DNA of 64,000 bases from a virus (IMGVR_UViG_3300014205_000180:1-64000); one strand, 5' to 3'; shown: positions 396 through 16,305, counted from the stretch's first letter. Notes: generated by a model not told the origin, from the sequence alone. Made by a program: numbers and translations.

Positions 396-857
396 ATGAA
401 AGTAGGAGGCGTTGGAGTTGGTCAAGCAATAGGCCCAGCAATAATATCTAGAAAAGCAGTGGAATTGATGGAAATTGATTATGAACAATTGCTTGGAAAA
501 TTAAAAAAACATTTAAAACGCATAGAACACCCAGATATATTAACAATAAGATATTTTGTATTTGATTATTTGTATCCACCAAAAAATAAAAAAGATCAAC
601 ATGGCCGATTTTTCGCAGATATAAATGATTCATCAGTTATAAAAGTTGTTAATGTATTATATGATTTAAGTCCACGTGTTAAATTAATTATTGATAATAA
701 TACAGATAAATTGAATGGAGGATATACAGGATTATTACCACGAACGATCACTATTCCAAAAATTAAAAAGCCATTTCCGAAATTTCCAATTTTCAATGAA
801 ACCTTCGATAATATCGACAGCAAGGTAACTGATCTTTTAAATATTGACAAAAAATGA
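396..857 (+). CDS. YE-scaffold family protein (paralogue 1)
   Basis: IDYEQLL and VVNVLYDLSP motifs shared with about 10 local paralogues. Confidence 0.7.
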   Translation: MKVGGVGVGQAIGPAIISRKAVELMEIDYEQLLGKLKKHLKRIEHPDILTIRYFVFDYLYPPKNKKDQHGRFFADINDSSVIKVVNVLYDLSPRVKLIIDNNTDKLNGGYTGLLPRTITIPKIKKPFPKFPIFNETFDNIDSKVTDLLNIDKK

Positions 858-1171
858 AATATCGAGAGCTTGATTATGGTTGGTTAATGTCAGAAATCAT
901 GAAGAAGTATGCAGAGAATAGACTATCTGATAGCATATTATCAATAATTAGGAGAATATTAACAGAAAATAAAATAATATTGGAAGATGGCGGGATAGGT
1001 GATGTGGTAGCCATTCTCATTCCATTAGATGAAACTGGAGCTATTAAAAAAATAGTTGAACATGAATATACACATCCATATATCCCATTAATGTATACAG
1101 ATTCAGTTAAGATCGCTGATACCACACGTCAAAGTTTAGAATCAAGATATGGAGTCAAGACATCCCGATAA
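854..1171 (+). CDS. YE-scaffold family protein (paralogue 2)
   Basis: LDYGWLM and VVAILIPLDE motifs; ATGA overlap with the previous gene; tail HPYIPL. Confidence 0.7.
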   Translation: MKYRELDYGWLMSEIMKKYAENRLSDSILSIIRRILTENKIILEDGGIGDVVAILIPLDETGAIKKIVEHEYTHPYIPLMYTDSVKIADTTRQSLESRYGVKTSR

Positions 1172-1493
1172 GCAATTTGAATATATCTTTTGCTCTATAT
1201 GGTGTTGAAACTACTGATTTAACTATTTTTTCAAAAAAGAGTGTATTATATATCATGATTTTATAATACAATTCTGGTTTCAATTCCTGCAAGACTTCTA
1301 ACACCTCTTCTGCACGGTCCCATTGATCTAATACTTTAGAACCGCCAATCTTTGGATTTTTACCTTTTTCTAATACTAAGACTATCAATGCTTCTGGCTT
1401 CATCACCCCAACATGCTTAGAATATTGTCCTTCAAGGTCACGGATCAGATCTTCATAATTTACTTCATGAAAATTGATCATGCTAGTCAGCAT
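1155..1493 (-). CDS. YE-scaffold family protein (paralogue 3)
   Basis: VNYEDLI and VLEVLQELKPE motifs. Confidence 0.7.
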   Translation of the reverse strand: MLTSMINFHEVNYEDLIRDLEGQYSKHVGVMKPEALIVLVLEKGKNPKIGGSKVLDQWDRAEEVLEVLQELKPELYYKIMIYNTLFFEKIVKSVVSTPYRAKDIFKLLIGMS

Positions 1494-1632
1494 TTATATA
1501 AGCAATTAGTTCCTCACGTGTCATGCTAGCAACTCTGTTTGGAATATAAACATACCTGTCATATCCTGAATCTGCCATAATTTCTTTGGCTTCCTTCTCA
1601 AGCTGTTTTCGTGACATGCATTCGATGTTCAT
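1483..1632 (-). CDS. 49-aa hypothetical protein (not in ORF track)
   Basis: ATG at 1632, open to TAG at 1483; fills the gap between co-oriented genes. Confidence 0.45.
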   Translation of the reverse strand: MNIECMSRKQLEKEAKEIMADSGYDRYVYIPNRVASMTREELIAYINAD

Positions 1633-1633
1633 A

Positions 1634-2632
1634 TTATGCCTTTGTGCTGTCTCTAACTATCACTTTATATTGACTGCGACCATGTGACCACTCAACCGGA
1701 CCAACCCAGGTTGGGTGAATATGAATGACTGCCCAACGCTTATTCTTGTAGCGTTCAGCCTTTAAAATCTTGGTGTGACCCCTACGCAAATGCGGGGTAG
1801 GGCTGGCATGTTCACCACCCTTGCTTTCAGATGGCGGTCTAATAATGTGAACCTTCATCGGATCAATCATTAAGACTTTTGGCCTGTCATGAAACCGTGG
1901 GGTCTTAACATGCTTATTACATGGCTTGACATGGGCTGGAGTGTCCACTACCAGATAATGTCTAGGCAGATTGATGTAGTGCAGTTGATCAAGTGCGCAA
2001 TCAACTGACGCCATGAAATCGCCTTTGACAGCACGATTGTACAGATCGTCGCCAACTTCCATGCCGCTATTAGGAATAGCTAATCTCTCAGCACTAGTGA
2101 TTGGAATTACGCTCTCAGGGATTGATTGGAATATAGCTTTATCTTCCTGATCCATGATACCAATCCATGCCATTACATCACCATCAACAAAATAACGCCT
2201 AATGTTGCCTTCAGTTGGGCGTGAAATTTGAATCTTACCAATAATCAGGCTGAATGAACCAATATGAACTTCATCCATCGCAGCATTGCTACAAAATGTG
2301 ATGATATTAACATCACGATAAATATTATGACCATCAATTACCTTATCGCCTTCCTCATAATCTGTAGCGTCAAATAATAGCACTACTCCCATAGTATCAA
2401 CTAATAGGCAGCTATCAAAAGGCATAGGCGGTGGCAGTATGCGTTGTTCATGTGTCAGATTTCTAGCAGTTTCTAGTACCACCTTTTCGCGTTCGGCATC
2501 AAATGTGAACATTGGTGAATTATCAATTAAATTGCAAATCCTCTTAGATGCTTTAGATGTGTTAATAGCAGGTCTGATGATCTTATCACAGACACGGCAA
2601 AAACGATTAAAAACATCTGTTGACGTAACCAT
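1634..2632 (-). CDS. conserved phage protein with C-terminal HxSPxxHxRRGH motif
   Basis: HASPTPHLRRGH...IHPTWVG motif typical of a widespread phage family of unknown function. Confidence 0.7.
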   Translation of the reverse strand: MVTSTDVFNRFCRVCDKIIRPAINTSKASKRICNLIDNSPMFTFDAEREKVVLETARNLTHEQRILPPPMPFDSCLLVDTMGVVLLFDATDYEEGDKVIDGHNIYRDVNIITFCSNAAMDEVHIGSFSLIIGKIQISRPTEGNIRRYFVDGDVMAWIGIMDQEDKAIFQSIPESVIPITSAERLAIPNSGMEVGDDLYNRAVKGDFMASVDCALDQLHYINLPRHYLVVDTPAHVKPCNKHVKTPRFHDRPKVLMIDPMKVHIIRPPSESKGGEHASPTPHLRRGHTKILKAERYKNKRWAVIHIHPTWVGPVEWSHGRSQYKVIVRDSTKA

Positions 2633-2649
2633 ATTAGTTTATAACAAGA

Positions 2650-3264
2650 TTAACGTTTTCCTTTAATATGATTCCTGTAATCATTGATACTATTATCAAG
2701 ATGGCCTTCATATTCGGTACTGAAATTTAGACCTTTAAGCTCATAGCAATTATCATAATTTTTGGCTTGGAGGTCTAAAGTATCGACCAATGCAATATTA
2801 ATCTTTGTGTGATCGAATTCAGGAATTGTTTCAATTGTCTTATTTGTCATACCTACACAAATTAATGGCCGATATAAAATGTTATATTCTTTATTTAATT
2901 CTTTATCGAATTTATTACCATACATGATAGCAGCGTTTCTTTTCATTCTTTCAACACTATTCTTGATGTTTGGATGGACACTTATGACATAACCATCATT
3001 AAATTTCTTAAACATGTACATGAACCAATTCTGGTAATCGCCTTCGCACCATTCAAGCAAATGATCGTAGACCGCTTTAGCATTATCGATAATTAAATTG
3101 GCTTGGGTTCTATTATTACTTGTATCTTGTTTCCATAAGACACCAATTGGCATTGGCGATTCAAAATCTTCCCATTCTTTTAAGATCGCAAAGTTATCGT
3201 CTTGTGAATTGTCGATAACTTTAAATGTTCCACGAAACAATGGAGTATAACCAAGAATTATCAT
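2650..3264 (-). CDS. hypothetical protein
   Basis: 204-aa ORF with GGAGG SD and TGTTATAAA motif upstream. Confidence 0.7.
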   Translation of the reverse strand: MIILGYTPLFRGTFKVIDNSQDDNFAILKEWEDFESPMPIGVLWKQDTSNNRTQANLIIDNAKAVYDHLLEWCEGDYQNWFMYMFKKFNDGYVISVHPNIKNSVERMKRNAAIMYGNKFDKELNKEYNILYRPLICVGMTNKTIETIPEFDHTKINIALVDTLDLQAKNYDNCYELKGLNFSTEYEGHLDNSINDYRNHIKGKR

Positions 3265-3300
3265 AATGCCTCCAATTCTTTATAACAACAATCTGTATTA

Positions 3301-3519
3301 CTATAAATGGGCGTGCGCTCTTGCTCTTATATCTTTATTAGTCTTATCCCAAGATTTTTCATCCATCGGCACTATTTCACTAGTACCGTCATTGTTATAA
3401 AACACATGCGCTTTAATCGATGGCTGATTCACCAACTTTGCACATTTACTACACATTAAACTATCGAGCAATTCGATACGCTCTTCTTCTACTTCATTGC
3501 CACAAGCACATTTTCTCAT
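3301..3519 (-). CDS. DksA/TraR-like C4 zinc-finger protein
   Basis: CACG-x-EER-x-LL-x-CSKC spacing; paralogue at 42366-42611. Confidence 0.55.
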   Translation of the reverse strand: MRKCACGNEVEEERIELLDSLMCSKCAKLVNQPSIKAHVFYNNDGTSEIVPMDEKSWDKTNKDIRARAHAHL

Positions 3520-4013
3520 GAATGTAAAGCTAAATGCATTACATCAACGCATTCATTACAGCAATGAACAGTATTGTCCTTGTTAGACATTAAGCGTTTG
3601 AACTTACTGTTATCTCTACCACAATATGAGCATTTGTAGTTAGTACGTATTTTAACATATTCATCAAGACCTATCTCAATAATTTTTATTGCATGCATTA
3701 TTGATGAACCATGCATGGCTCCTGAACAATCATTATGACAAGCAGCCATGACTGCTTTTTCCATTTCGCCATTAGTAAGATCATTAACTTGATCAACTGT
3801 AGAAACTTGCTTTGTGATAACTTTTTCTTTAACAATATCTTTAATTGGATCTAATACTTGTAATGCAGCATACATCATATTAACACATGTTGCTTCATAT
3901 CCACCACCAAATCCGCTAATCTCTCTACAGCTTTTTGGGATTGGATATTTAGCTCTAATAGCTTCCTGACCAGGAAATGGCGGGACTATTCTTGTATCAG
4001 GAGCATCATTCAT
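3516..4013 (-). CDS. hypothetical protein with C-terminal ClpX-type C4 zinc-binding domain
   Basis: CSYCGR...KRLM...VHCCNECVD resembles the ClpX ZBD (CSFCGK...KLI...ICDECVD). Confidence 0.6.
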   Translation of the reverse strand: MNDAPDTRIVPPFPGQEAIRAKYPIPKSCREISGFGGGYEATCVNMMYAALQVLDPIKDIVKEKVITKQVSTVDQVNDLTNGEMEKAVMAACHNDCSGAMHGSSIMHAIKIIEIGLDEYVKIRTNYKCSYCGRDNSKFKRLMSNKDNTVHCCNECVDVMHLALHS

Positions 4014-4014
4014 G

Positions 4015-4416
4015 TTATTTGCCTTTATTTTTTGTTAGTATATTTTCAACTTCTTTTATTTTGTCATCATATAATTTAACAGCTTGTTCACGTGTGGGCT
4101 TTTCACCTTTTGGTTTAAAAATCATGCATGAATAAAAACATCCGTTCGATTCAGTTTGATTTCTAGATAACGGGCAGCACTGTCTTTTAGTCGAATATTT
4201 GATGTCTACTCTATTTGGCTGATCTGGCCATAGATAATCTTGTGGATCTGGCCAACCACTCTTATCACCGCAGCACATACCCCATGAGCAATGTGTATGT
4301 TTATTGCCAATTTCTTCACTATCTTCATGCTTAAGCTCTGCTCCATTAGCAATTAAATCACGCATACGCTTAAGGAACGCTAAATAACGATCATCACTTA
4401 GATTAATGTTTTTCAT
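4015..4416 (-). CDS. Cys-rich hypothetical protein
   Basis: 133-aa ORF with CSWGMC, CCP and GCFYSC motifs. Confidence 0.65.
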   Translation of the reverse strand: MKNINLSDDRYLAFLKRMRDLIANGAELKHEDSEEIGNKHTHCSWGMCCGDKSGWPDPQDYLWPDQPNRVDIKYSTKRQCCPLSRNQTESNGCFYSCMIFKPKGEKPTREQAVKLYDDKIKEVENILTKNKGK

Positions 4417-4557
4417 TTGATCTTTCTAAATCTTCTATGTTTAAACGTTCATTTATTAATTTATATAATTCGTCTGAACGATGCAACATATATTTCCCAA
4501 CTATCAGCCCGCCAAATAAGAAAGCCATCAAATGGCTTAATATTAGAATGACTACGA

Positions 4558-4815
4558 TCATTGTTTGTGCGTTTCGTTTTTTATTTTATCTCTAACTTCT
4601 TTTGGTATCAAATGAGTTGGCCATACATATGTTCTACGACAACGTGATGATGACCATATGATATCACCATTTTTTGATGTTGTAAAACTACCATTATGAT
4701 TAATACATATATAATATTCTGTTTTTAAGCCATCTTTAGCTATATGCGGTCCACTTAATATTCTAAGTTGTCGTGGTATTCCTTTACCACGATATGGATT
4801 ATCGAATACTATCAT
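4558..4815 (-). CDS. hypothetical protein
   Basis: 85-aa ORF in a tightly packed minus-strand run. Confidence 0.55.
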   Translation of the reverse strand: MIVFDNPYRGKGIPRQLRILSGPHIAKDGLKTEYYICINHNGSFTTSKNGDIIWSSSRCRRTYVWPTHLIPKEVRDKIKNETHKQ

Positions 4816-4816
4816 A

Positions 4817-5047
4817 TTACCAATCTGAGTGCTGCTTTTGGCCGGGTGGCTTTATCATTGTCGCAACATAATGATAATATGCACTAGCAGATGATGGTGC
4901 TTGGCATACTTGAACGCTGCCAACTAATCTTTCATTTTTCTCATGAACACGAGTATAAACTTCGCTCATAATATCTTTAACACTAAATCCATCATGTTCT
5001 AGCACTGTATATATGCCATAATCATTAATTCTTACCTTTTCGCTCAT
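4817..5047 (-). CDS. hypothetical protein
   Basis: 76-aa ORF with AGGAGA SD. Confidence 0.6.
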   Translation of the reverse strand: MSEKVRINDYGIYTVLEHDGFSVKDIMSEVYTRVHEKNERLVGSVQVCQAPSSASAYYHYVATMIKPPGQKQHSDW

Positions 5048-5086
5048 GATTATCTCCTATGACTTTATATTATAATTGTACGTTTA

Positions 5087-5416
5087 TTAAATATTAGTAT
5101 TTTCTGTTACTGTAAATTCAACTGATGCTGAAATTATTACTTCAAGTCCACAATGTTCACAAGTGTGAGTCTCTGATGCTCCATCCCATGAACTCATATC
5201 GTCATTACCACCTAATCCAGTAAGGCTAATTTCTTTTTTGCATTTTGGGCATTTCGCATACCCAATATTTTTTGTGTCTTTCACTATATTGAAATACCGT
5301 ATTTTAAAATCATGTATAAAAGAATTCCAATAACCGCTGCAAAAAGAATAGCTAAAGATTACGATAAAAATCAAGTTATAATTATAACTTGGGATAAAAA
5401 ATATGGCAGAACTCAT
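5087..5416 (-). CDS. small zinc-ribbon protein (true start probably internal, near VKDTK)
   Basis: CPKC...CEHCG pairs; the N-terminal part overlaps the plus-strand gene at 5312. Confidence 0.5.
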   Translation of the reverse strand: MSSAIFFIPSYNYNLIFIVIFSYSFCSGYWNSFIHDFKIRYFNIVKDTKNIGYAKCPKCKKEISLTGLGGNDDMSSWDGASETHTCEHCGLEVIISASVEFTVTENTNI

Positions 5417-5539
5417 GTTACTACTTATGGTAAATCAATTGAAGAATGTGAACAAGCAGCAGCTGGCGGCAACTTTATTAAAAAAGCATTGGGATGGCCA
5501 GATAAATTATGTAGAGCTAAACCAAGTCGCGTAAAATGA
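5312..5539 (+). CDS. conserved phage hypothetical protein
   Basis: IPITAAKRIA...THVTTYG motif; GTATTTT motif upstream. Confidence 0.65.
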   Translation: MYKRIPITAAKRIAKDYDKNQVIIITWDKKYGRTHVTTYGKSIEECEQAAAGGNFIKKALGWPDKLCRAKPSRVK

Positions 5540-5793
5540 TTTATGAAAATGGATTCAATAATTTAAAAATTGATCAAAACGTTAAAATGTATTATTGGAT
5601 ATTAGATAATAATAATGGTGATTTATTTAAAAGATATCTTGTAGAAACAACTGCTACCGATTCGATAACTCTTGGAAGTAATGTTACTGTTTTATGGTCT
5701 GGAATTGATGGAGTGGTTGCTTATAGGATGTTATATTTAATCCATGGTGGTCATGATGTTAAACAAGTTATTGAAAGTTTAGGATTAAAATGA
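5536..5793 (+). CDS. hypothetical protein
   Basis: 85-aa ORF overlapping both neighbours. Confidence 0.55.
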   Translation: MIYENGFNNLKIDQNVKMYYWILDNNNGDLFKRYLVETTATDSITLGSNVTVLWSGIDGVVAYRMLYLIHGGHDVKQVIESLGLK

Positions 5794-6419
5794 AACGCAA
5801 CGAGCAGCCGGTTATAACCATATCAACAGACCCTATTGAAGCTATTCGTTATAATTTGCGTTCTGCCGCCGATGCGCTGATGGCTGCTGGAAAAATCTAT
5901 GTGCAAGAGTTGAATGTCGATCCGACGTTCCGCGATCGTTTGCGTAAAGCCATCCCAGAGTTGACTGCCGGATTTCTGGCAGCCCTTGAAAAGGTTGGAC
6001 TAGGAGCCTTAGACCCTCGTGTGCTGTATGACGGCTGTCCATGTCCGACATTGGTTGCACACCTCCCACCTTCCGAGCAACGTAGGTTGATCGAAAAAAC
6101 TGTGGAGCTTGCGGATGAGCACGGAGGGAGTCAGACTGTGTGGTTCCGTGATCTGTCTCCATTCCAGGCGAGGCAAATACTGTCATCGGACGGCATTCGC
6201 AGTGTTTCCGAACAAGTTTCCTACCTGAAGAGTTTGCGGATCGTCAAGAGCAAAAACACCATGGATCAGAGTCGGCAGATTGTTACGAAAGACAATCAGG
6301 TAGCCGCCGTTCAGATCGATACCAAGCGTGGCCGAGTGATGATTTCCAGTGCTCCCGTGACATTCACTGCTGATGACCTTCGTGCTCTGATCCGGGAAAT
6401 AGAAAATGTGCAGCGATAG
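5790..6419 (+). CDS. hypothetical protein in a GC-rich insert
   Basis: 209-aa ORF, visibly more GC-rich than its flanks. Confidence 0.7.
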   Translation: MKRNEQPVITISTDPIEAIRYNLRSAADALMAAGKIYVQELNVDPTFRDRLRKAIPELTAGFLAALEKVGLGALDPRVLYDGCPCPTLVAHLPPSEQRRLIEKTVELADEHGGSQTVWFRDLSPFQARQILSSDGIRSVSEQVSYLKSLRIVKSKNTMDQSRQIVTKDNQVAAVQIDTKRGRVMISSAPVTFTADDLRALIREIENVQR

Positions 6420-6936
6420 GTATAAAGAAATCGCAGCATTTGAGGAACAGGTCTCAAAAGCTTTGTGGAAAGCGCGATCAGGTGATGAGGTAGGAGCAAA
6501 ACTGTATCGTACAAAATATGGCCCAGACCGTGGTGAGCCTCATATCCTAGAAAAGAATTCTTCATTACCAAGGCCAGAATGGATTGTAAAAGGGACCTCG
6601 TGCCATTACGAAATCTCCATCATTGTATGCGAAACAACCGCGCAATGGGCTTTTGAGAATGGATTCACACTAGAAGAAATTGCTCGGTGGTGGAGTATGC
6701 AGATTCGACCACCAGCCACCGTGCGGGACGGATGGCCCTGGTCAGCAAAGGCCCGTTGGGCTGAAGGCAGGGTGCGTGCCAATCGGAATGCGCAGTATGA
6801 AGCGCAGTGGAGAGAACGTAACGGAATAGAGCCGATTGGAAAGACCATGGCTCGCAAGGAAGCCATCAAGAAGAAGAACGCACAACGGCATCGTCAACGG
6901 CGACAGGCGATGGTGGACGCTATTATAGGGACTTAG
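6406..6936 (+). CDS. basic hypothetical protein in a GC-rich insert
   Basis: 176-aa ORF overlapping the previous gene; Arg-rich C-terminus. Confidence 0.6.
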   Translation: MCSDRYKEIAAFEEQVSKALWKARSGDEVGAKLYRTKYGPDRGEPHILEKNSSLPRPEWIVKGTSCHYEISIIVCETTAQWAFENGFTLEEIARWWSMQIRPPATVRDGWPWSAKARWAEGRVRANRNAQYEAQWRERNGIEPIGKTMARKEAIKKKNAQRHRQRRQAMVDAIIGT

Positions 6937-6974
6937 CCAAATTATAGAAAATGTAAATAATAAGGAGATAAATC

Positions 6975-7199
6975 ATGAGTGAATTAAGCTACAAAGTAAC
7001 TGCAGCTATGGCGGCAATAAATAATGCACCATGGGCTAAAAACGCTAATAAATTTTGTTTAACTTGTAACGGAAATACCAGAAATCTAAATGAAGCCGAA
7101 TTAGAAGAACTTTTAAATCGTTATAGAGCAAATGGTCGTGCTGATGTTAAAATTGAAACTAAAGAAAATGGTCAAAAGTTTATATTAAACTTCGTATAA
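6975..7199 (+). CDS. hypothetical protein
   Basis: 74-aa ORF with AAGGAGA SD. Confidence 0.65.
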   Translation: MSELSYKVTAAMAAINNAPWAKNANKFCLTCNGNTRNLNEAELEELLNRYRANGRADVKIETKENGQKFILNFV

Positions 7200-7406
7200 T
7201 AATGAATAGTTAGTTTCTATTTCAGAAATTTCTTTATGTGTGGCCTGATTATCTAAATATTCTGTTATTTTTTCACGAACAGATTGCCTATAATAATTAA
7301 CATCAATTGTTACATAAATATTTCCACTGATATTAACTGTTTGTCTTTCTCTATTCTTAAAATGTGCATGCATCTTTTCATAATCTAAAGTAATACTTAA
7401 GCTCAT
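7185..7406 (-). CDS. YE-scaffold family protein (divergent paralogue 4)
   Basis: LDYEKM motif; second motif poorly conserved. Confidence 0.55.
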   Translation of the reverse strand: MSLSITLDYEKMHAHFKNRERQTVNISGNIYVTIDVNYYRQSVREKITEYLDNQATHKEISEIETNYSLLYEV

Positions 7407-7657
7407 ATGATGGTTATTTCATCCAAATCGAGGTTTGAATGAATTTTTGATAATCTCTTAATTTCTGGATCAAGATCGCATAATATATCCAATACTTTAC
7501 CCATAGCTGTTGTATCAATATCGCCATTTATACTACCCTCATATGCGAGTTCTCCAGTTGTTGCTAAATATGTATACAAATCGTAATATCCAGTCGGATT
7601 CATAGCTTTTATCTCAACAATCAATTTTTCATAATTTATTTTAACTATTTCTACCAT
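7403..7657 (-). CDS. YE-scaffold family protein (paralogue 5)
   Basis: INYEKLI and VLDILCDLDPEI motifs. Confidence 0.7.
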   Translation of the reverse strand: MVEIVKINYEKLIVEIKAMNPTGYYDLYTYLATTGELAYEGSINGDIDTTAMGKVLDILCDLDPEIKRLSKIHSNLDLDEITII

Positions 7658-7705
7658 GACATTTTATATTTATTAACAAAGTATTGTAAACTGTTATAAA
7701 ATGGT

Positions 7706-8053
7706 GTGAGCTATCCATTCTATGTTATTCTCAAAGATGGTTGGTGGATGGTTATTGCCAGCCCGCTTAAGCGTGATATTAGACATACCACGCTATGGGA
7801 ATTAATAGTCGCTAGAATGGTGGCTATTGAGAATTGCTTAAATTATAATGATATTAAGAATCTGCCATATTCGCAGATTAGGGGGAGAGTTGTTGATAAC
7901 GTGATTTACTATGGCGACGAATTTACTGCCGAACAAAAGGAAGTGATCAAGAATACACTTGGCCAATTTGTCTACGTTTATGATGAACATGAAAAAATGA
8001 CTGAATACGATATTGAAGTGTTTAATAGCCTCAAAAATAAGGCATGCGGTTAG
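7706..8053 (+). CDS. hypothetical protein
   Basis: 115 aa, GTG start just after TGTTATAAA; RGRV and DEHE motifs. Confidence 0.65.
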   Translation: MSYPFYVILKDGWWMVIASPLKRDIRHTTLWELIVARMVAIENCLNYNDIKNLPYSQIRGRVVDNVIYYGDEFTAEQKEVIKNTLGQFVYVYDEHEKMTEYDIEVFNSLKNKACG

Positions 8054-8625
8054 AATTTATTAATGAATCGTTGCTTGCCGCCGAAGCAGAAATAACTGAT
8101 ATTAATAAATTACAAAAATCATTAGGTATTAATTTATCCGGTATGCAAGAAATAGGCCATGGTACGATGGCTACTGTTTATAAAATTGGAGATAAAGCTT
8201 TAAAAATCACTAGGGATAATAAAGATGTAATTCATACTGTTAAAGCTCAGAGAATTAAGAGTAATAACGTTGTTAAAATTCACAGACTGTCTAAGGATGG
8301 CTTGAGTAGCGGTACTGCAATGTTGCTTGATTTTGTTGATGGACCACTTGCACCATTTTCTACTGGCGAATGGCATGCCTTAATTCAAGGTTCTGGGATT
8401 GATGAGTTATCAGATGCTGTTAAATTAATATTAACTGATAATAAAGGAATAAGAAATAAAATTTTAACAGATCACGGCTTAAATGATAACAAATCAAGAT
8501 CTAAGATTAGCGAATTATTTAAAACTTTAAGATCACTTCAATCAATTGGCGTCAACATTGACGATCTTGGCGATAATATTATCGACACTGGTGATCGGTA
8601 CGTTTTGATCGACCTCGGGAATTAA
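8044..8625 (+). CDS. protein kinase-like fold protein
   Basis: Gly loop IGHGTMATVYK, ALKIT lysine, catalytic-loop-like DDLGDNI and DFG-like IDLG. Confidence 0.7.
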   Translation: MRLEFINESLLAAEAEITDINKLQKSLGINLSGMQEIGHGTMATVYKIGDKALKITRDNKDVIHTVKAQRIKSNNVVKIHRLSKDGLSSGTAMLLDFVDGPLAPFSTGEWHALIQGSGIDELSDAVKLILTDNKGIRNKILTDHGLNDNKSRSKISELFKTLRSLQSIGVNIDDLGDNIIDTGDRYVLIDLGN

Positions 8626-8839
8626 TCCCTAATACTTTCGGGCTGTGATCTAAAACTAGTTTATCTCCAATTTTATAAAGTGCCGCAAATTCATCAGTTA
8701 TTGTGACTGATAAATCACAGTGCCATATATCATAATAAGTAAATTTTTTACCAATTTTGGTTCTGAATTTAAGTCCAAAAAGAGTTTTTGTTAAAACTCC
8801 TTTTATTCCTTTAGCTTGTCTTAAGTATTTTCTGCTCAT
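8579..8839 (-). CDS. hypothetical protein
   Basis: 86-aa basic ORF ending a minus-strand run. Confidence 0.6.
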   Translation of the reverse strand: MSRKYLRQAKGIKGVLTKTLFGLKFRTKIGKKFTYYDIWHCDLSVTITDEFAALYKIGDKLVLDHSPKVLGINSRGRSKRTDHQCR

Positions 8840-8841
8840 TT

Positions 8842-9177
8842 TTATTCCTGTGCTGTTATTGTAAGTGGCTTATTATCATTCAATGGTGGTAATACCACTA
8901 TCTTTCCAGTAACATCAAATGTGATTGTTATATGATCTACAGGAGGAATGTACCAACTACATTCTATTTCACGTATGTAAGGGTCTAATTCCATTAAAAC
9001 CTCAATGATTTTATCAATGAACTTACGATCATTTGGATAAATATCCTTTATTACACGTGTCAATTCTGCACTATCTCTTGGTTGTTTAGCTTTAATATAT
9101 TCTATAAGCTCTTCATAATTGACATGTAAGTGATTAGGTTTTTCATAATTGATATGTAAATGATTTAATTCGTACAT
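8842..9177 (-). CDS. YE-scaffold family protein (paralogue 6, duplicated N-terminal motif)
   Basis: NHLHINYEK-P-NHLHVNYEELI tandem duplication; IIEVLMELDPYI. Confidence 0.7.
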   Translation of the reverse strand: MYELNHLHINYEKPNHLHVNYEELIEYIKAKQPRDSAELTRVIKDIYPNDRKFIDKIIEVLMELDPYIREIECSWYIPPVDHITITFDVTGKIVVLPPLNDNKPLTITAQE

Positions 9178-9179
9178 GG

Positions 9180-9503
9180 CTACACCTGTGTTACGCCATA
9201 TTCAACATTAGCTGCTTTATCACTATTATTGCTTATTTCTGGATCGATTTCTGGGTATAAATCATATAATATTCTTAAAATTTTATGTAACTCCTTCATG
9301 TTGTATACATCCATTAATGGTATTACCTTTTCAGTATAACGCCTTTCGTTATCGAAGTTTAGCCATTCTTTTATCTTTATAAATCCGTTTGTTTCAAGAT
9401 ATCTGATAATAGTGTTAGACTTTGTTATTTCTCGCCCATATTTATAATCATCAATGACAACCTTAAGCTTTTCATAATTTAAATTGGCATGATTTATGGA
9501 CAT
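9180..9503 (-). CDS. YE-scaffold family protein (paralogue 7)
   Basis: LNYEKLK and ILRILYDLYPEI motifs. Confidence 0.7.
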   Translation of the reverse strand: MSINHANLNYEKLKVVIDDYKYGREITKSNTIIRYLETNGFIKIKEWLNFDNERRYTEKVIPLMDVYNMKELHKILRILYDLYPEIDPEISNNSDKAANVEYGVTQV

Positions 9504-9826
9504 GCAGTTAAAAAACTATTATTGATTTTAATGGGGACATAATAATGTGGTCGAATTACAGATAATTCTCCAGGCCAGCTTGCTCCTTTATATCCAATTA
9601 CTACATAATCATTATCACTATCAATAATTGTATGATCTATATCTAATAATATATCGATTATTTTTAATATTTCGTGCGTATTATTTGCTAAAATTGGCTT
9701 ATTATTTCCAATTAATATGGCTCCGATAGTCAACCCGAGACTCATTCTACTAGTTATTGGCTTTTTTAATTTCCAATTTTTAATATCAGTAAGTAATTGT
9801 TCATAGTTGACATCAAAAGCATTCAT
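9494..9826 (-). CDS. YE-scaffold family protein (paralogue 8) with gp23-like GYKG tail
   Basis: VNYEQLL and IIDILLDID motifs, followed by NDYVVIGYKGAS. Confidence 0.7.
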   Translation of the reverse strand: MNAFDVNYEQLLTDIKNWKLKKPITSRMSLGLTIGAILIGNNKPILANNTHEILKIIDILLDIDHTIIDSDNDYVVIGYKGASWPGELSVIRPHYYVPIKINNSFLTACP

Positions 9827-10287
9827 GCTGGTCTATCAGGATAATACTGAGGAATATATTCTACCACTTTTGACCATTTATTTCCAGCAATTAAGCATAA
9901 ACGACGAATCAAAGTTGCAGATGTTGGATGTGCCTTGAGATGAGCAAGACGTTCTGGATCTAAACCCTTATTCGCTATAATACGATCTGGATCGCCTAAG
10001 AATTGAATTAGATCACCAAATACCAGTCTATGAGCAGTATCGCTCTTTGAAATTGTAGTAGAATTTTTAGTGAGAACTTCGGTATTTGGCGGAAGATGAT
10101 CAGCAGGTACAGTAGTTGTGTCTTTAAAACGTTGTTCAAAAGCTATCATATTATCATCAATTACACACCATCCAAATGATCCATCACCTCGTGCAATTTT
10201 TCTAGTTAAAACTGGAATCTCACTACCATCTGGCATCTTTAATGTCGCAGCGCTGTAAGTTCCACTTAAAGTATCTGATTGATTCAT
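9823..10287 (-). CDS. hypothetical protein
   Basis: 154-aa ORF with AAGGA SD. Confidence 0.7.
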   Translation of the reverse strand: MNQSDTLSGTYSAATLKMPDGSEIPVLTRKIARGDGSFGWCVIDDNMIAFEQRFKDTTTVPADHLPPNTEVLTKNSTTISKSDTAHRLVFGDLIQFLGDPDRIIANKGLDPERLAHLKAHPTSATLIRRLCLIAGNKWSKVVEYIPQYYPDRPA

Positions 10288-10327
10288 TTTATATCCTTGA
10301 TAATTTTTATGACAAAAGTCATTTAAA

Positions 10328-10921
10328 TCAATCCTTCTTTGGAACTAATATTTTACTTCCTGGCTTATAAGGTGCAAAGACAAGCCCAGGACTAGTTTTA
10401 GATTTACCTTTAAATCCCATTTTAATATTACTAAGGCTAAGATCTTCTTTAGCCTCAGCGCTCCATTTGCATTTTAATGAACGTCGTTCAGCTTTTATCT
10501 TTATTATTACCATTCCATTTTTTTCGACTCTATCGCCAGATTCTAAATCACGCCATCTTCTTAATTGTTCTGGAACAGATTGAAGTCTGTATGGTGCACA
10601 TGTCCTGCAAATATGTTCTTGGTACCAATTTCCAGGTATTCTAACATCATGAATGAAACAACATCCATCACCAACATCTAATATTCTAATTGGCCATTCA
10701 ATCTTTTTGTTTTTAAACAATTCACTAATATTTTCAGCGTTAAAATTAAGAACTTTATAAAACGTTAATTTTTTACCTGATTTTACTCCAAGCGAAAAAC
10801 AATTTCCGCGAGGCAGTGGGAAATCTTTAGGAATATAACCAACACAAGTCTGACTACCCATTTCAATAGCATTAAGGAATTTAGTTGGTTTTGAAACTGC
10901 CTTAATGTCTTTTAAATTCAT
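10328..10921 (-). CDS. hypothetical protein with C-terminal T4 gp23-like capsid segments
   Basis: IKAERRSLKCKWSAEAKEDL and MGFKGKSKTSPGLVFAPYKP resemble two conserved gp23 blocks. Confidence 0.65.
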   Translation of the reverse strand: MNLKDIKAVSKPTKFLNAIEMGSQTCVGYIPKDFPLPRGNCFSLGVKSGKKLTFYKVLNFNAENISELFKNKKIEWPIRILDVGDGCCFIHDVRIPGNWYQEHICRTCAPYRLQSVPEQLRRWRDLESGDRVEKNGMVIIKIKAERRSLKCKWSAEAKEDLSLSNIKMGFKGKSKTSPGLVFAPYKPGSKILVPKKD

Positions 10922-10954
10922 ATAAATAAAATACCTAACTCAAAAATATTTAAT

Positions 10955-11875
10955 ATGAAGTTGAATAGTTTAAATAAGGATAAATTAAGAATTGGGGTGA
11001 TAGGGTATTGTTCTCAATATTTTGATAAAAAAGATGCTAAAAATAAATTAGAAAAAACAGTCAAGAATATAGTAAAAAACAACAAACTTCCAGTACATAT
11101 AGTGTCGGGCCTTACAAATATTGGAATGATGGCGATAGCATATAAAGTGGCAAGCGAAAATGGCTACAAAACAGTTGGCTATGCATGTAAAAAAGCTTTA
11201 GATATGGAATTATTTGATGTTGATAAGAAACATATTATTGGAGATAAGTGGGGAGATGAAAGCGAAGAATTTATTAATAATATAGACGTATTAATAAAAG
11301 TTGGAGGTGGTGAACAATCTAAGAAAGAATTAAAAATGGCTAAAGAATTAGGTATTGAAACTCATGAGTGCGATGTAAAAGAGAAAATATCATATTGTTT
11401 AATGGGATATCTTAATAAAGATTCAGCAAAAGAAATTCATGAACAAGCCAAGAATTTAAAAGCCAGAGAAGTTAAAAAACCAGATTACCACATAACTATA
11501 AGATACTGGTTAGCTGATCCTAAAGAAAGTATCTCAAAAGTAACCAAATATTTAGATGATAGATTTAAGCATCCAGTGCTTATTGAAGCAGATTATGAAG
11601 GCGAAACTGAAACTTTTGGTAATGAAAAATCACATGTACTTCTTGTTAATAGCAAATCTTTAAACGAATTCCAAAAGGACATTGATAATAAATTGCAAAG
11701 CTTTGGCGCTCCACCATCAGATTTTCCTGATTATAGGGCGCACATAACTGTCGCAGAAGGCGTAACAAAGAATGTTAAAATTAAGAATTGTAAAGTGCTG
11801 ATAAACAAATGGATTCTTACTACTAACAATGATTCAAACGAAAAACCTAAAGTTATTTGGGAAAAGGAATTCTAG
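10955..11875 (+). CDS. SLOG domain fused to 2H phosphodiesterase (Acb1/gp57B-like)
   Basis: N-terminal IGVIG, IVSGLTNIG, TVG and VGGGEQSKKE SLOG-type motifs; C-terminal HxT pair YHITIRY and GAPPSDFPDYRAHITVA. Confidence 0.75.
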   Translation: MKLNSLNKDKLRIGVIGYCSQYFDKKDAKNKLEKTVKNIVKNNKLPVHIVSGLTNIGMMAIAYKVASENGYKTVGYACKKALDMELFDVDKKHIIGDKWGDESEEFINNIDVLIKVGGGEQSKKELKMAKELGIETHECDVKEKISYCLMGYLNKDSAKEIHEQAKNLKAREVKKPDYHITIRYWLADPKESISKVTKYLDDRFKHPVLIEADYEGETETFGNEKSHVLLVNSKSLNEFQKDIDNKLQSFGAPPSDFPDYRAHITVAEGVTKNVKIKNCKVLINKWILTTNNDSNEKPKVIWEKEF

Positions 11876-12317
11876 AGATATCTTCAGCATAAATTCCAAC
11901 AACTTTACTATCCATTGATAATTGGGTTCTTAATCTAGTTAATTGCGGATGATGCTTTAAACAATTGCTTAATCTTCTACCAGAATCAGTGTTAATAATT
12001 TTAATTTTTGCATTTACTTTACCATCTTTTACTTCAACATCTGTTACCACAGCACCAGCACGCATTAAATCATTACGACCACTTTCTCCATCAATATTGT
12101 CAAATACCAATACAGTCTTTTCTTTTATTCTTTTTTGCAGATCCTCAATTGCTTTTTCTACTACTTCTTTTGGATAAACCATTCCATTAGCGTTTGGCTT
12201 ATTATCATTGCAGACTTCCATAATGTTAACGACTAAATCAGGATTATCTTGTTTAAACTGTTCGCGCATTTTTGCGTCACGGATGGTCTGCTCATTTTCA
12301 TCGTCATGATTACTCAT
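11853..12317 (-). CDS. T4 gp21-like prohead protease homologue, apparently inactive
   Basis: NANGMVYPKEVVEKAI and AKIKIINTDSGR match gp21 blocks; the ELDHP His and GxSSRG Ser motifs are absent. Confidence 0.6.
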   Translation of the reverse strand: MSNHDDENEQTIRDAKMREQFKQDNPDLVVNIMEVCNDNKPNANGMVYPKEVVEKAIEDLQKRIKEKTVLVFDNIDGESGRNDLMRAGAVVTDVEVKDGKVNAKIKIINTDSGRRLSNCLKHHPQLTRLRTQLSMDSKVVGIYAEDISRIPFPK

Positions 12318-12355
12318 ATTATTTTATAATAGAAACCAGATTGCGTAAATAGTAT

Positions 12356-12646
12356 ATGGGTCCGACAGATAGTGATGTTGATACAACATGCAAGCACACT
12401 ATGCTTTTACCTAGACGTGCAACTGATATGTATGATAAATGTGCAATTTGTGGGAAATTTGTCAGGGATTCTCTTGATTATGTTGGCACTACAACTATTG
12501 GAACTATGACCAATGTTAGTATGGGTCGTGTTGCAATTAATCAGCCTGCTATACAGATTATTCATGATAGAAACAAAATAGCTAAAAAGTTAGAATGGAC
12601 GCCTCCACCAAATGCGCCAAAAAAGCGTAATTTGTACAATAAATAA
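12356..12646 (+). CDS. hypothetical protein with zinc-binding motif
   Basis: CKH...CAICG motif. Confidence 0.55.
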   Translation: MGPTDSDVDTTCKHTMLLPRRATDMYDKCAICGKFVRDSLDYVGTTTIGTMTNVSMGRVAINQPAIQIIHDRNKIAKKLEWTPPPNAPKKRNLYNK

Positions 12647-12689
12647 TTTTTTAAACTTGTTAAATTAAACTAAAAATAAAATATATCCT

Positions 12690-13385
12690 GTGAAAACCAT
12701 AAGCGTAATAATCCACTCAATATCAGCGTGCAATCTCAAATGCACTCATTGTGGTCAAGGGACCTGGAGAAAAGATCTTCCCACATATAAGTTAACATTT
12801 GAGCAGGTTAAAAAATTTTTAGATGTTTGTAAAGAAAGTGACTATTCTATTAAAGAAATTTTGATAAGTGGTGGTGAACCTTCATTATGGAAAGATCTTG
12901 AATCATCAGTAAAATTAATGAAGCAATCTGAAGTTGTCAAATCGGTAACATTGTTTAGTAACGGCACTAGATTAATGAGCGATGAAGTTATTAAAAATGT
13001 TAATCAGATAATAGTTTCATATTATAATGGATCTAATAAAGAAGCAGTCGATGAAATGGTCAAAAAGTGTAAAGAATATGGTGTTAGATTTAAATTGAAG
13101 GATAAGCATAAATTCTGGCCATGGCCAACAGAAAAAGTTGAAGGAACTGTTCCAGGGCAGTGTGTATGCACACCAATGTCATTACTTGGTGATGAAATAG
13201 CTGTATGTGGTCAAGTATTTGAACTTGAAAGAAGATTTAATTTAGATTGTTCAACTCATAAAATCAAAGTAGAAAATGGATTCCTTGATCGTTTAAATAT
13301 GAAAATAGGAACGTACGATATTTGTGGATATTGCATTGAAAATAGGTCAGTTCAAAGAAAAATGGATAAAGTGTTAAACGATTAG
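12690..13385 (+). CDS. radical SAM protein
   Basis: CNLKCTHC cluster motif, SGGEP, FSNG and C-terminal Cys cluster. Confidence 0.85.
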   Translation: MKTISVIIHSISACNLKCTHCGQGTWRKDLPTYKLTFEQVKKFLDVCKESDYSIKEILISGGEPSLWKDLESSVKLMKQSEVVKSVTLFSNGTRLMSDEVIKNVNQIIVSYYNGSNKEAVDEMVKKCKEYGVRFKLKDKHKFWPWPTEKVEGTVPGQCVCTPMSLLGDEIAVCGQVFELERRFNLDCSTHKIKVENGFLDRLNMKIGTYDICGYCIENRSVQRKMDKVLND

Positions 13386-13396
13386 TATATAGGTTA

Positions 13397-13663
13397 ATGC
13401 ATCAGGGTTTAGACTATGAAAAAATGATAAAAGACATAAGGGATATTGTATCAGAATGGTCTATCACTAAAAATAATGATGATGACAGTGATTTGTTTTC
13501 AACAATTGAAAGAAGAGTATTCTTTAAACTTGGCATAGATAAAGATGAAATTCAATCAGTTATAAAAATACTATCAGATTTAGATGAATCTATTGGTGCT
13601 ATTTTTGTCAGAATAGATGTTGATATTATGGATAAAGCAATTTATAAAATAAATAAATTTTAA
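13397..13663 (+). CDS. YE-scaffold family protein (paralogue 9)
   Basis: LDYEKMI and VIKILSDLDESI motifs. Confidence 0.7.
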   Translation: MHQGLDYEKMIKDIRDIVSEWSITKNNDDDSDLFSTIERRVFFKLGIDKDEIQSVIKILSDLDESIGAIFVRIDVDIMDKAIYKINKF

Positions 13664-14508
13664 GGATTTTGCCTTTTTAAGCGTATTTCTGATTCTGATG
13701 GCCCTTCGCGCCATTCTCCACTACGATTTTTCTGTACAGTTTGTTTTGGTAACAGCGATGATATTCTATTTTCATTTGCATCATGTGGGTTATCTTCATA
13801 CATTGGTTCAATAGTTCTTCTATTATAAATCTGTCCATCAAGGTTTCCATTCATCCTGCCAATCATGTATTTGGCTTCATGCGTTATAGTCGATAGGAAT
13901 ATAGCATGTTGTACCATGATTACTATCAATCTGATTCTATTGGTTGAAAAAAATGCGCTTTGAGCAACTTTTTCGCTTTGGATTATTAAAGATTCAATTA
14001 ATTCAGTATCCCATTTTTTAAATGCAGCTATCGCTTGTGGTGGTATGCCACGTCTAATCCATTTATCGTTAATTGAATTTTGTAAGTCAGTAAGCATCGT
14101 TGATACACGATTGGAAAATTGTTCTGCGTATTTTGGTCCTCTATCCTCAAATCCCTCTCTTTTAACTTCCGCAGCAATAAATTCATTAAATATATCGTGC
14201 CACGCTGTGAGATAATCAGAAAGCATATCTCTTAACATTTCAGTTCTAGCATGACAACCACATCTTATAGTTGGTAATTTCCTAGCCATTAATTCTTGAA
14301 CAGTGACGAAAAAGAAATGATCTTCAACTAATGGTCTATTATATATATCAGTACCTTTTGTTATTTTATCAGTCTTTTTAAAAAGTTTCTTTTTCAACTT
14401 CAAAAAATATATTGTTAAAATTTCTCTGAATGCCCATATTAGCACCAATAGAAACGCTCCTAGTATACTTGCGGTGCTAGTATCAATGCCTAAATCAATG
14501 TCGCCCAT
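13660..14508 (-). CDS. N-terminally membrane-anchored helical protein (holin-like or lysis candidate)
   Basis: Single N-terminal TM, basic stop-transfer segment and LVEDHFFF motif; similar layout at 31862-32635. Confidence 0.55.
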   Translation of the reverse strand: MGDIDLGIDTSTASILGAFLLVLIWAFREILTIYFLKLKKKLFKKTDKITKGTDIYNRPLVEDHFFFVTVQELMARKLPTIRCGCHARTEMLRDMLSDYLTAWHDIFNEFIAAEVKREGFEDRGPKYAEQFSNRVSTMLTDLQNSINDKWIRRGIPPQAIAAFKKWDTELIESLIIQSEKVAQSAFFSTNRIRLIVIMVQHAIFLSTITHEAKYMIGRMNGNLDGQIYNRRTIEPMYEDNPHDANENRISSLLPKQTVQKNRSGEWREGPSESEIRLKRQNP

Positions 14509-14597
14509 ACTTTAATTTTGCGCATTGTTAATTAAGACATAATCATTAATTTTATTAAAACGTATTTAATGTACAATAAAGGGACAAAAATAATTTC

Positions 14598-14849
14598 ATG
14601 GACAAAATTGAAGCACGCAACATACGTTTACTTAATACTAATAATTTTACAAAAGAAGTTATTCAACAATTAATTGACAGATTAAACTCTGAACATATAG
14701 CTATAACAAATAACACAGCTATAGTGCCTGGAACTGTAAAATTGGTTGATAATTATATTGAGGCTAATGTTAACTCAACAGGCAATAATAAAATGGTCAA
14801 ATATGCTAATATTATAAACGATATATTATTAGCGCCTATTCCTTCTTAA
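14598..14849 (+). CDS. hypothetical protein
   Basis: 83-aa ORF; weak resemblance to the gp21-like ORF at 11853 (NFTKEVIQQLI). Confidence 0.5.
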   Translation: MDKIEARNIRLLNTNNFTKEVIQQLIDRLNSEHIAITNNTAIVPGTVKLVDNYIEANVNSTGNNKMVKYANIINDILLAPIPS

Positions 14850-15090
14850 TTTCTTCTTCCTTTTTACTATCTTCAATTACTTTTTTAATTTCATTTACAA
14901 TTTCATCGATTAATTTACTTATGACAGTTGTTCCATCGGCATACTTTGTGTTTTTTACGCCAACTCTTTTAAAGTCTTTTCCAGTAAAATAGTATACACC
15001 CAAATTACTTTCATTCCATTCTACTACATCACCAACATTAAAGTGATTAGATCCTATTGTTATATCTTTTGTAATTGTAATGCTTTTCAT
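14836..15090 (-). CDS. hypothetical protein
   Basis: 84-aa ORF with AAGGA SD. Confidence 0.6.
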   Translation of the reverse strand: MKSITITKDITIGSNHFNVGDVVEWNESNLGVYYFTGKDFKRVGVKNTKYADGTTVISKLIDEIVNEIKKVIEDSKKEEEIKKE

Positions 15091-15104
15091 GTTTTATCCT
15101 TAAT

Positions 15105-15440
15105 CTAAATACTAATACGGGCTTTTTTGGTTGGGCGATCACGACTAATCCCAATACTTTCCATTCCAATACTTATTCTGAATAGTATCAGGCGTGTTAG
15201 AGACTGACTGGCAGCCATTGGTTGAACACTGACAAGATCACTAATGGCGTCATGACTAAGTGCTTTTTTAACATTTTCATCTAATTCAGCTAAAATTCTA
15301 GCAACATCGTATATACTATGACCTCTTATTTTGCCTCTTAAAATTTTATTTAATTGATTTAATAATTGAAACTGATCCTTAATTAGATGAGGCTTTAACT
15401 TTTTTAAAATTTCTTCGTAATCTAACTTACTATAATGCAC
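15105..15440 (-). CDS. YE-scaffold family protein (paralogue 10) with Gol-like DLVSVQPM tail
   Basis: LDYEEIL and VARILAELDENV motifs, followed by ISDLVSVQPM. Confidence 0.7.
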   Translation of the reverse strand: MHYSKLDYEEILKKLKPHLIKDQFQLLNQLNKILRGKIRGHSIYDVARILAELDENVKKALSHDAISDLVSVQPMAASQSLTRLILFRISIGMESIGISRDRPTKKARISI

Positions 15441-15454
15441 TAAATTAAAATACG

Positions 15455-15670
15455 TTAAATGTCAATCTCATTGGAAATAAGCATTAAATCTCTATCAAGA
15501 TCACACAATATATTAACAATTCTGTTTGATGCATCCCAATTTTCTATTACTCCATCTACTGACCTATCTATATTTAACACATCACATGTAAAATTGAAAA
15601 TATCAAAAAAATTACGCGGTTTATTAGCTTTAACTTCTTTAATTAACCATTCAAAATCAACATTAATCAT
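15455..15670 (-). CDS. YE-scaffold family protein (paralogue 11)
   Basis: VDFEWLI and IVNILCDLDRDL motifs. Confidence 0.65.
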   Translation of the reverse strand: MINVDFEWLIKEVKANKPRNFFDIFNFTCDVLNIDRSVDGVIENWDASNRIVNILCDLDRDLMLISNEIDI

Positions 15671-16080: not shown

Positions 16081-16305
16081 CTATATATTACTTTTCCATA
16101 TTTCTTCTATTATTTTCATTGAGTATTCATCTGGATGAACATTATTAAGATCTGCCTTCCATAGCCCTAAACCATTTCTTATTTTACGTCCAATATTATG
16201 ATGTATCCTAATTAACTCTTCAAATTTCATTTTCTTAATTCCTGATATAGCATCAGGGCCAATTAATTTTTTAGCTAACTCAACATGTTGTTCAAAAGTT
16301 ACCAT
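16081..16305 (-). CDS. DUF6794-like protein
   Basis: HHNIGRKIRNGLGLW and HPDEYS motifs. Confidence 0.55.
   Translation of the reverse strand: MVTFEQHVELAKKLIGPDAISGIKKMKFEELIRIHHNIGRKIRNGLGLWKADLNNVHPDEYSMKIIEEIWKSNI

Follow-up and report, generated by a model that had tools for sequence, protein, structure and literature searches.

A 64,000-nucleotide stretch of DNA from an uncultured T4-like phage (IMGVR_UViG_3300014205_000180:1-64000, hereafter the window) opens a viral contig of 150,988 bp that is estimated to be about 60% complete. It encodes 11 small paralogous proteins of a rare family. In each of them a conserved N-terminal scaffold is joined to a variable C-terminal tail. Sequence comparisons show that in a subset of the family the tail is a short linear copy of a conserved segment of gp23, the T4-type major capsid protein (MCP). 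Below, open reading frames (ORFs) are named by their first coordinate in the window, relatives carry P numbers, and coordinates of the features are collected in Table 1.

The paralogue family and its three-helix scaffold

When the whole contig was searched with a profile of the scaffold, exactly 11 ORFs were matched, all of them located between 396 and 15670, with E values from 1e-19 to 6e-7; the next ORF reached only 0.025. The 11 paralogues are encoded on both strands and are about 70-153 amino acids long. Their scaffold is marked by an N-terminal motif of the form hydrophobic-N/D-Y-E-x-L and by a later helix ending in L-x-D/E-L-D. For ORF 9494, an AlphaFold2 model built on a 44-sequence alignment places residues 1-68 in a three-helix bundle with a predicted local distance difference test (pLDDT) score of about 90, compared with about 51 for the tail. 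The predicted N-terminal fold is thus confidently modelled. The description given in the initial annotation, a shared scaffold with differing tails, is therefore correct. One member, ORF 8842, carries the N-terminal motif in tandem, its two N-Y-E copies lying 12 residues apart; its orthologues (P0011, P0013 and P0014) have a single N-Y-E copy and varied leaders.

The family is both real and rare. An exhaustive profile search among 1.84 billion representative proteins yielded only 43 matches at E <=0.001, all 69-143 amino acids long, and no capsid protein was among them. Pfam and PHROGs searches of the family proteins returned nothing significant, and cultured phages contained no match to the family. 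Structural searches with the bundle gave no match at E <=0.001 in PDB and BFVD (Foldseek), no usable match in the ESM Atlas and nothing specific by VIA-align, where the best Z of 5.8 belonged to generic helical or winged-helix domains. With P0002, P0003, P0015, P0027, the N-terminus of ORF 15105 or an alignment of ORF 10328 (a neighbouring protein described below) as query, IMG/VR and metagenome contigs yielded only full-length capsid genes or no match at all.

We also considered whether the scaffold itself might be a gp23 propeptide. This was rejected: with hhalign E values of 0.039 and 0.11 and a permutation control, the scaffold profile did not resemble the capsid N-terminus, and capsid proteins are likewise lacking among the 43 matches. 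The HK97-type architecture (N-arm, peripheral or P domain, and A domain, about 450-520 amino acids) is not present in the family either, only blocks of 12-35 residues being alignable.

Capsid segments in the tails

The tails were compared with MCP profiles built from 21, then 110 capsid proteins, and each member was scored against 300-1000 shuffles of its own sequence. The T4 gp23 motifs which the initial annotation had cited all occur exactly in T4. The phage's own MCP, encoded outside the window at contig positions 136334-137815 (minus strand, 493 amino acids), is of gp23 type (Pfam Gp23, E 8e-79), which the interpretation of the initial annotation requires. In the phage collection, the sequence nearest to this MCP comes from an uncultured phage of 595 kb (37.5% identity); XacN1-like phages and cyanophages are next. 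At the nucleotide level, the first 16 kb of the window have no match in the phage collection.

If all 635 ORFs of the contig are ranked by the MCP profile, the MCP itself is followed by ORFs 10328, 17306, 15105, 9494 and 854. Three of the 11 family members stand within the top five of the 634 non-MCP ORFs (hypergeometric P ~4e-5). Motif counts point the same way: a VQPM-type motif is present in 8 of 48 family members, versus about one genuine non-capsid match in 1.46 million residues of six-frame phage background, and a GYKG-type motif in 3 of 48, versus none in the same background.

The strongest case is ORF 15105, for which the initial annotation had pointed to VQPM and a resemblance to the core of the Gol peptide. 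Its tail scores 3.6-8.4 bits against the MCP profiles, a score reached by 1 of 500 and 0 of 400 shuffles. Two relatives, P0002 (83% identical) and P0003 (62%), have tails ending in a textbook VQPM segment. Of the 24,736 Pfam families, Gp23 matches them best (E 2.3e-5 and 5e-5), at positions 12-49 of its profile. P0002 attains 24.5 bits, just above the Gp23 (PF07068) cut-off of 24.4, over only these positions out of 376. Five further, more distant members share the VQPM block. Aligned as an eight-member subgroup, these proteins match the MCP profile with E 6e-9 and 96% probability (hhalign), and ORF 15105 with its seven relatives aligns to residues 86-109 of the phage's own MCP, which correspond to T4 residues 107-130, the Gol core. 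The resemblance is thereby upheld. In this subgroup, unlike in other members, the match covers MCP-profile positions 67-113 and passes collinearly from helix 3 to the tail. The copy in the window keeps the Gol block only as far as VQPM. A frameshift in ORF 15105 was ruled out, no other frame restoring the consensus after VQPM. A scaffold tree, having too few columns, does not tell a single from a multiple origin of the Gol-type tail.

A second type of tail corresponds to the hairpin of the P domain. ORF 9494, in which a GYKG..YVP resemblance had been noted, matches MCP-profile positions 425-457 with 3.0 bits (0 of 500 shuffles; 1 of 400 in a further comparison). It has GYKG/GFKG and YVP(I/L) in common with its homologue P0027, at nearly the spacing found in capsid proteins, and the pair aligns to MCP residues 426-458 with hhalign E 1.8e-4. 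We regard this resemblance as supported, with moderate strength. The likeness of ORF 854 (PYIPL..RYG) is weak to moderate and rests on shuffles and on the rank in the genome: the tail at 1073-1159 (PYIPL .. RYG.K) aligns to residues 446-476 of the own MCP, the P-loop segment, with a Smith-Waterman z of 3.05 and scores 3.0 bits against the MCP profile (0 of 500 shuffles); in the other comparisons its score was reached by 6 of 300 and 1 of 400 shuffles. No orthologue of ORF 854 was found.

These low scores have to be read with caution. Against the capsid hairpin block, a spurious 80-residue ORF at 58850-59092 (plus strand) equals the scores of ORFs 854 and 9494; since it runs antisense within thyA (58240-59166), which encodes thymidylate synthase, its match is due to chance. 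A score of 2-6 bits is thus not to be trusted by itself, and ORFs 854 and 9494 rest on their family context, ORF 9494 also on its homologue. The 138-residue ORF 17306-17722 (minus strand), which ranks directly after ORF 10328, matches the insertion-domain part of the capsid profile with 4.8-5.0 bits (1-6 of 1000 shuffles); this match, too, may be due to chance.

The remaining tails give less. In ORF 396 the claimed gp23 N-arm block (753-800) carries no MCP signal in the window copy. Its subgroup aligns to the MCP with hhalign E 0.11, the best alignment falling where the initial annotation had predicted, and the same place is hit by its orthologue P0029 (MCP-profile positions 68-90; 1 of 400 shuffles). 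For ORF 8842 the tail is not convincing (15 of 500 shuffles; subgroup hhalign E 0.12). The YLDNQ match proposed for ORF 7185 was equalled by 84 of 500 and 121 of 1000 shuffles, the RIDVDIM match of ORF 13397 by 84 of 500 and 161 of 1000, and LFNPYV of the edge ORF does no better than shuffles. Neither of the first two was borne out, and the third fell with them. None of the 10 window members scanned with Pfam Gp23 (all but ORF 15455) gave a match at E up to 10.

Altogether, several tails beat their shuffled controls, and capsid blocks were recognized in 3 of 11 window members and in about 12 of 48 family members overall. Of seven resemblances claimed at the outset, those of ORFs 15105, 9494 and 854 stood, three fell, and that of ORF 396 stays at E 0.11. 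The architecture that had been proposed, a small scaffold carrying pieces of gp23, accordingly holds for a minority of the family. The picture of an array in which most copies display different capsid epitopes was not borne out, eight of the 11 window copies being devoid of significant capsid similarity.

The same kind of block occurs next to the family on an unrelated protein. ORF 10328 ranks second among the 635 ORFs of the contig (12.4 and 9.3 bits for its two blocks) and matches the MCP with hhalign E 6.9e-6; against Pfam Gp23 it scores 14.2 bits, below the cut-off. One block corresponds to a P-domain strand with a short acidic helix and the other to the P-domain hairpin. Although adjacent in ORF 10328, they lie about 150 residues apart in the MCP. 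All five orthologues (70-80% identity) retain both blocks, with 0 of 400 shuffles reaching the score in each case. The N-terminal 135 residues form a conserved Cys-rich domain; the AlphaFold2 model of ORF 10328, with a pLDDT of 32, is too poor for a fold to be assigned, and a PDB sequence search found no match.

In the alignment, the copied blocks correspond to T4 gp23 residues 96-130, 258-281 and 431-478. In the prohead, gp23 residues 66-105 are turned towards the scaffolding core, and later on they form the N-arm; the P loops (about 457-461) and the short acidic P-domain helix make inter-capsomer contacts at the quasi-threefold axes. The same elements harbour the head-length mutations and those that bypass gp31 (A455V, G292S and others) (PMC9546572). 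The Gol region, at residues of about 93-122, binds EF-Tu and licenses Lit, and no part of gp23 is more conserved (PMC3014915). Because the blocks map to these elements, the tails copy the most constrained contact surfaces of the MCP and not random pieces of it.

Gol-type members that have diverged in their scaffolds (18-45% identity) still have mostly 50-88% identity in the 8-residue block (3 of 8 residues in one pair). This conservation, like that of both blocks in the five ORF 10328 orthologues, shows that selection acts on the tail. Elsewhere the tails turn over. P0008 (identical to ORF 13397), P0038 and P0042 cluster in a well-supported clade within which the tails differ, as an arms race would predict; P0038, the nearest relative of ORF 13397 elsewhere, ends in a GYKG motif.

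No consistent rule is apparent as to whether tails follow the own or a foreign MCP. For the tails of P0002 and P0003, generic T4-like capsid proteins are a far better fit than the MCP of the lineage studied here, which ranks 107 of 108. The hairpin block of ORF 10328 is nearer to the own MCP (rank 21 of 108), and that of its orthologue P0047 ranks it first of 108. The own MCP differs from the rule at four nearly invariant Gol-core positions directly after VQPM. In T4, escape from Lit maps to this region.

Possible functions of the capsid-like tails

Competitive mimicry directed at host readers of capsid segments appears to be the best explanation for these proteins, though we put it forward as a tentative one. 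Each protein consists of a conserved three-helix handle of about 65 residues and a flexible C-terminal tail. In a subset this tail copies a capsid segment, the Gol/N-arm block in ORF 15105 and its seven relatives and the P-domain hairpin with the P loop in ORFs 9494 and 854; ORF 10328 has such copies on its different, Cys-rich handle. Such a tail would compete with the genuine capsid protein for a partner recognizing the segment, and the handle would block or redirect that partner. The sequence analysis establishes the family with its fold and the conserved, capsid-derived tails; we infer the binding, the identity of the partner and the direction of the effect. The likeliest class of partner would be a host reader of capsid segments, that is a sensor of the Lit/Gol, CapRel, CBASS (cyclic oligonucleotide-based antiphage signalling system) or TIR (Toll/interleukin-1 receptor) type, or EF-Tu. 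Capsid proteins are reported as triggers of defence (PMC13728456), and if the partner is a host capsid sensor, the proteins would be counter-defence antagonists. The decoy or assembly-inhibitor functions suggested by the initial annotation receive only circumstantial support, from the adjacent Acb1-like gene and dead protease copy (see below), and likewise from the fact that the copied segments are assembly interfaces.

Several observations weigh against host-reader mimicry. The Gol peptide alone activates Lit (PMC3014915), so a copied ligand would be expected to trigger the sensor and not to block it. Only about a quarter of the members have a detectable capsid block, so that a separate role has to be assumed for the handle. 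The fit of P0002 and P0003 to generic capsid proteins would suit a target in rival phages at least as well, and the evidence for ORFs 854 and 9494, if taken alone, is weak. Promoter counts give no expression timing, since the T4 late-promoter consensus is not enriched (33 sites vs 42 expected) and sigma-70-like sites are no commoner than in shuffles, and no RNA run was listed that holds the locus.

Ranked second, and its main rival, is interference with head assembly, which we consider unlikely without dismissing it. Here the tails would be dominant-negative interface copies binding the capsid protein itself, either P loop to P loop at the quasi-threefold axes or N-arm to scaffolding core, and would poison heads of co-infecting rival T4-like phages or delay premature assembly of the phage's own capsid protein. 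The blocks indeed map to the core-facing N-terminal region, the acidic P-domain helix and the hairpin with the P loop, and protein fragments are known to inhibit mainly at oligomer interfaces and folding contacts; such fragments, however, are poor at titrating proteins of very high abundance (PMC9245647), and among the late proteins none is more abundant than the capsid protein. The generic fit of the P0002 and P0003 tails, together with the deviant Gol core of the own MCP, is the pattern expected if self is spared, but the ORF 10328 hairpin and its orthologue in P0047, being closer to the own MCP, speak against a consistent foreign bias.

Two other explanations seem improbable. T4 internal proteins are directed into the head by an N-terminal targeting sequence of about 10 residues ending in a gp21 cleavage site (hydrophobic-x-Glu), and the family might be their counterpart, targeted to the scaffolding core through the N-terminal motif or an N-arm-like tail, packed, and injected with the DNA. 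The family motif N/D-Y-E-x-L-I does resemble the capsid targeting sequence of T4, which we confirmed to occur there, and a multi-copy, hypervariable set of small proteins is what T4 internal-protein loci contain. The N-terminal region of T4 gp23 is turned towards the scaffolding core (PMC9546572), at which a copy of that region could therefore dock. Yet only 14 of 44 members have the cleavage-site Glu after the motif, and the motif starts at residues 5-20, inside helix 1 of the bundle, and not at the extreme N-terminus. It is similarly doubtful that the proteins are mere relics, small genes recruited from a duplicated or acquired head module (gp21-like, then gp23-like), with motifs retained for their own fold or stability and with no mimic function. 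Gene order would agree with this, the protease-like ORF 11853 being followed on the minus strand by the capsid-like ORFs 10328 and 9494 in the T4 order 21 then 23, as would the collinear match of the ORF 15105 subgroup. What disagrees is the scaffold, which resembles no capsid N-terminus and finds no capsid protein, the better conservation of blocks than of scaffolds, and the occurrence of different, non-adjacent capsid blocks on one handle and of the same block type on an unrelated Cys-rich one.

Literature searches found no phage protein family displaying capsid fragments. The nearest published idea is the decoy proposal for Bodo saltans virus, whose ankyrin-repeat proteins carry fragments of essential genes and were read by the authors as decoys for host defence (Deeg et al. 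2018, PMC5871332). Both viruses have an expanded family (11 paralogues here) joining a common module to pieces of their own essential proteins. Bodo saltans virus, however, is a eukaryotic giant virus employing an ankyrin module and N-terminal fragments of catalytic domains, whereas the phage family uses a three-helix handle and C-terminal segments of 15-35 residues from a structural protein. By this analogy a role as decoy against host defence is a proposal in both cases.

The Gol peptide of T4 gp23, acting in Gol-Lit-EF-Tu exclusion, demonstrates that a linear peptide suffices for reading by host proteins; it binds domains II/III of EF-Tu and licenses cleavage by Lit (PMC3014915). Tails of the ORF 15105 type copy the same core (T4 about 107-130), but here the segment ends a separate accessory protein of 90-110 amino acids instead of lying within the capsid protein, the block of the window copy has diverged after VQPM, and the likeness is one of sequence. 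Dominant-negative fragments and microProteins (Savinov et al. 2022, PMC9245647) are likewise short pieces of a protein, which imitate one of its native contacts and thereby compete with it, and their inhibitory peaks lie at interfaces and folding contacts, where the copied capsid blocks also lie. Those fragments were made in the laboratory, unlike the natural, conserved genes found here, in which the pieces are fused to a dedicated handle.

Like the T4 internal proteins, members of the family are small, multi-copy and hypervariable and have a short N-terminal motif of similar wording; unlike them, their common part is a folded bundle of 65 residues and only a third of them have the cleavage-site Glu. 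In satellites, capsid-size remodelling proteins such as CpmB of SaPI1 dock onto the capsid protein by a terminal copy of the helper's scaffold tail. The likeness lies in the short terminal copy of a segment from a head-assembly protein, the difference in that the satellite copies a scaffolding-protein tail and the phage copies segments of capsid protein.

Among the major triggers of bacterial immunity (Lit/Gol, CapRel, CBASS, TIR) are capsid proteins and head proteases, which raises the question how phages cope apart from mutating such constrained proteins. A phage family that copies constrained segments onto a small handle would, if the mimicry is true, be a new kind of answer, and its tails would be natural, evolution-tuned peptides marking capsid surfaces relevant to host sensors or to assembly. 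The idea is open to ordinary defence and assembly assays. In a broader form, large T4-like phages would keep a natural library of interface peptides, displayed on the three-helix handle and in ORF 10328 on the Cys-rich one, together with a dead head protease, blinding host sensors of capsid assembly or sabotaging rival heads; on the sequence evidence we see the chances of this as close to balanced, slightly on the negative side. If so, it would represent a general strategy of counter-defence or competition by self-mimicry, not yet described for phages. Whatever the function, this is a new small-protein family in which capsid-derived motifs are selected outside the capsid gene, its new elements being the distinct N-terminal three-helix handle and the well-supported Gol-type subgroup.

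Head-gene pieces and other features of the region

Table 1. Family members and neighbouring genes in the window
Coordinates	Strand	Feature	Evidence
468..857	+	Family member ORF 396 (longest ORF from 396, start Met 468)	Scaffold hidden Markov model (HMM) E 3.8e-7
854..1171	+	Family member	Scaffold HMM E 2.8e-15
1155..1493	-	Family member, no capsid-like tail	Scaffold HMM E 3.1e-10; tail no better than shuffles
7185..7406	-	Family member, divergent	Scaffold HMM E 6.1e-7
7403..7657	-	Family member, short tail only	Scaffold HMM E 3.1e-19; no MCP signal
8842..9177	-	Family member, N-terminal motif duplicated	Scaffold HMM E 5.9e-19
9180..9503	-	Family member, no capsid-like tail	Scaffold HMM E 8.2e-10; tail no better than shuffles
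9494..9826	-	Family member, putative P-domain-hairpin tail 9509-9613	MCP profile, homologue P0027, AlphaFold2
13397..13663	+	Family member	Scaffold HMM E 9.1e-15
15105..15440	-	Family member, Gol-core tail 15198-15245 (..LVSVQPM..)	MCP profile; relatives' Pfam Gp23 matches
15455..15670	-	Family member, scaffold only	Scaffold HMM E 1.2e-19
10328..10921	-	Non-family protein, Cys-rich N-domain and two MCP blocks: 10439-10504 (strand and acidic helix), 10361-10432 (hairpin)	MCP profile, hhalign
10955..11875	+	SLOG (nucleotide-binding) domain fused to Acb1-like/LigT 2H phosphoesterase	Pfam
11853..12317	-	Truncated prohead protease copy (T4 gp21 type), 154 amino acids	Peptidase_S77 E 3.9e-5; PHROG E 7.8e-9

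Two neighbours of the family bear on the readings above. ORF 11853, whose PHROG match is the head maturation protease, has Asp at the equivalent of T4 His85 and lacks the region of Ser140; judged by this alignment, it is a catalytically dead half of a prohead protease. The genuine gp21 is encoded at contig positions 141299-141958. Since prohead protease activity was reported as a trigger of CBASS in a 2026 preprint (PMC12991175), ORF 11853 could serve as a shield or decoy. It overlaps the 3' end of the Acb1-like gene, ORF 10955, which sits between ORFs 10328 and 11853 on the opposite strand. With Pfam matches to LigT_PEase (E 4e-6), Acb1 (E 1.3e-5) and SLOG cluster4 (E 1.3e-3), ORF 10955 is a candidate anti-CBASS protein.

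In a second metagenome we found only relatives of the Acb1-like/protease-like stretch (about 80-90% identity for the Acb1-like part) and one identical piece of 236 bases, which has no bearing on the tails. Within-genome BLAST revealed no further copies of structural proteins in the first 17 kb. Outside the window, directly upstream of the real prohead protease gene, lies a 748-residue ORF (contig 141996-144242, minus strand) with long acidic and Gly-rich low-complexity stretches, which is probably the scaffolding or prohead core protein.

A 165-residue ORF at 3516-4013 (minus strand) ends in a ClpX-type C4 zinc finger (Pfam E 5e-7) and is, as this match suggests, another stand-alone copy of a partner-binding module, in this case derived from a host protein. 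The family genes are also interspersed with those of a small radical-SAM protein (12690-13385, plus strand; Pfam E 2e-15) and a DUF6794 protein (16081-16305, minus strand; E 5e-7).

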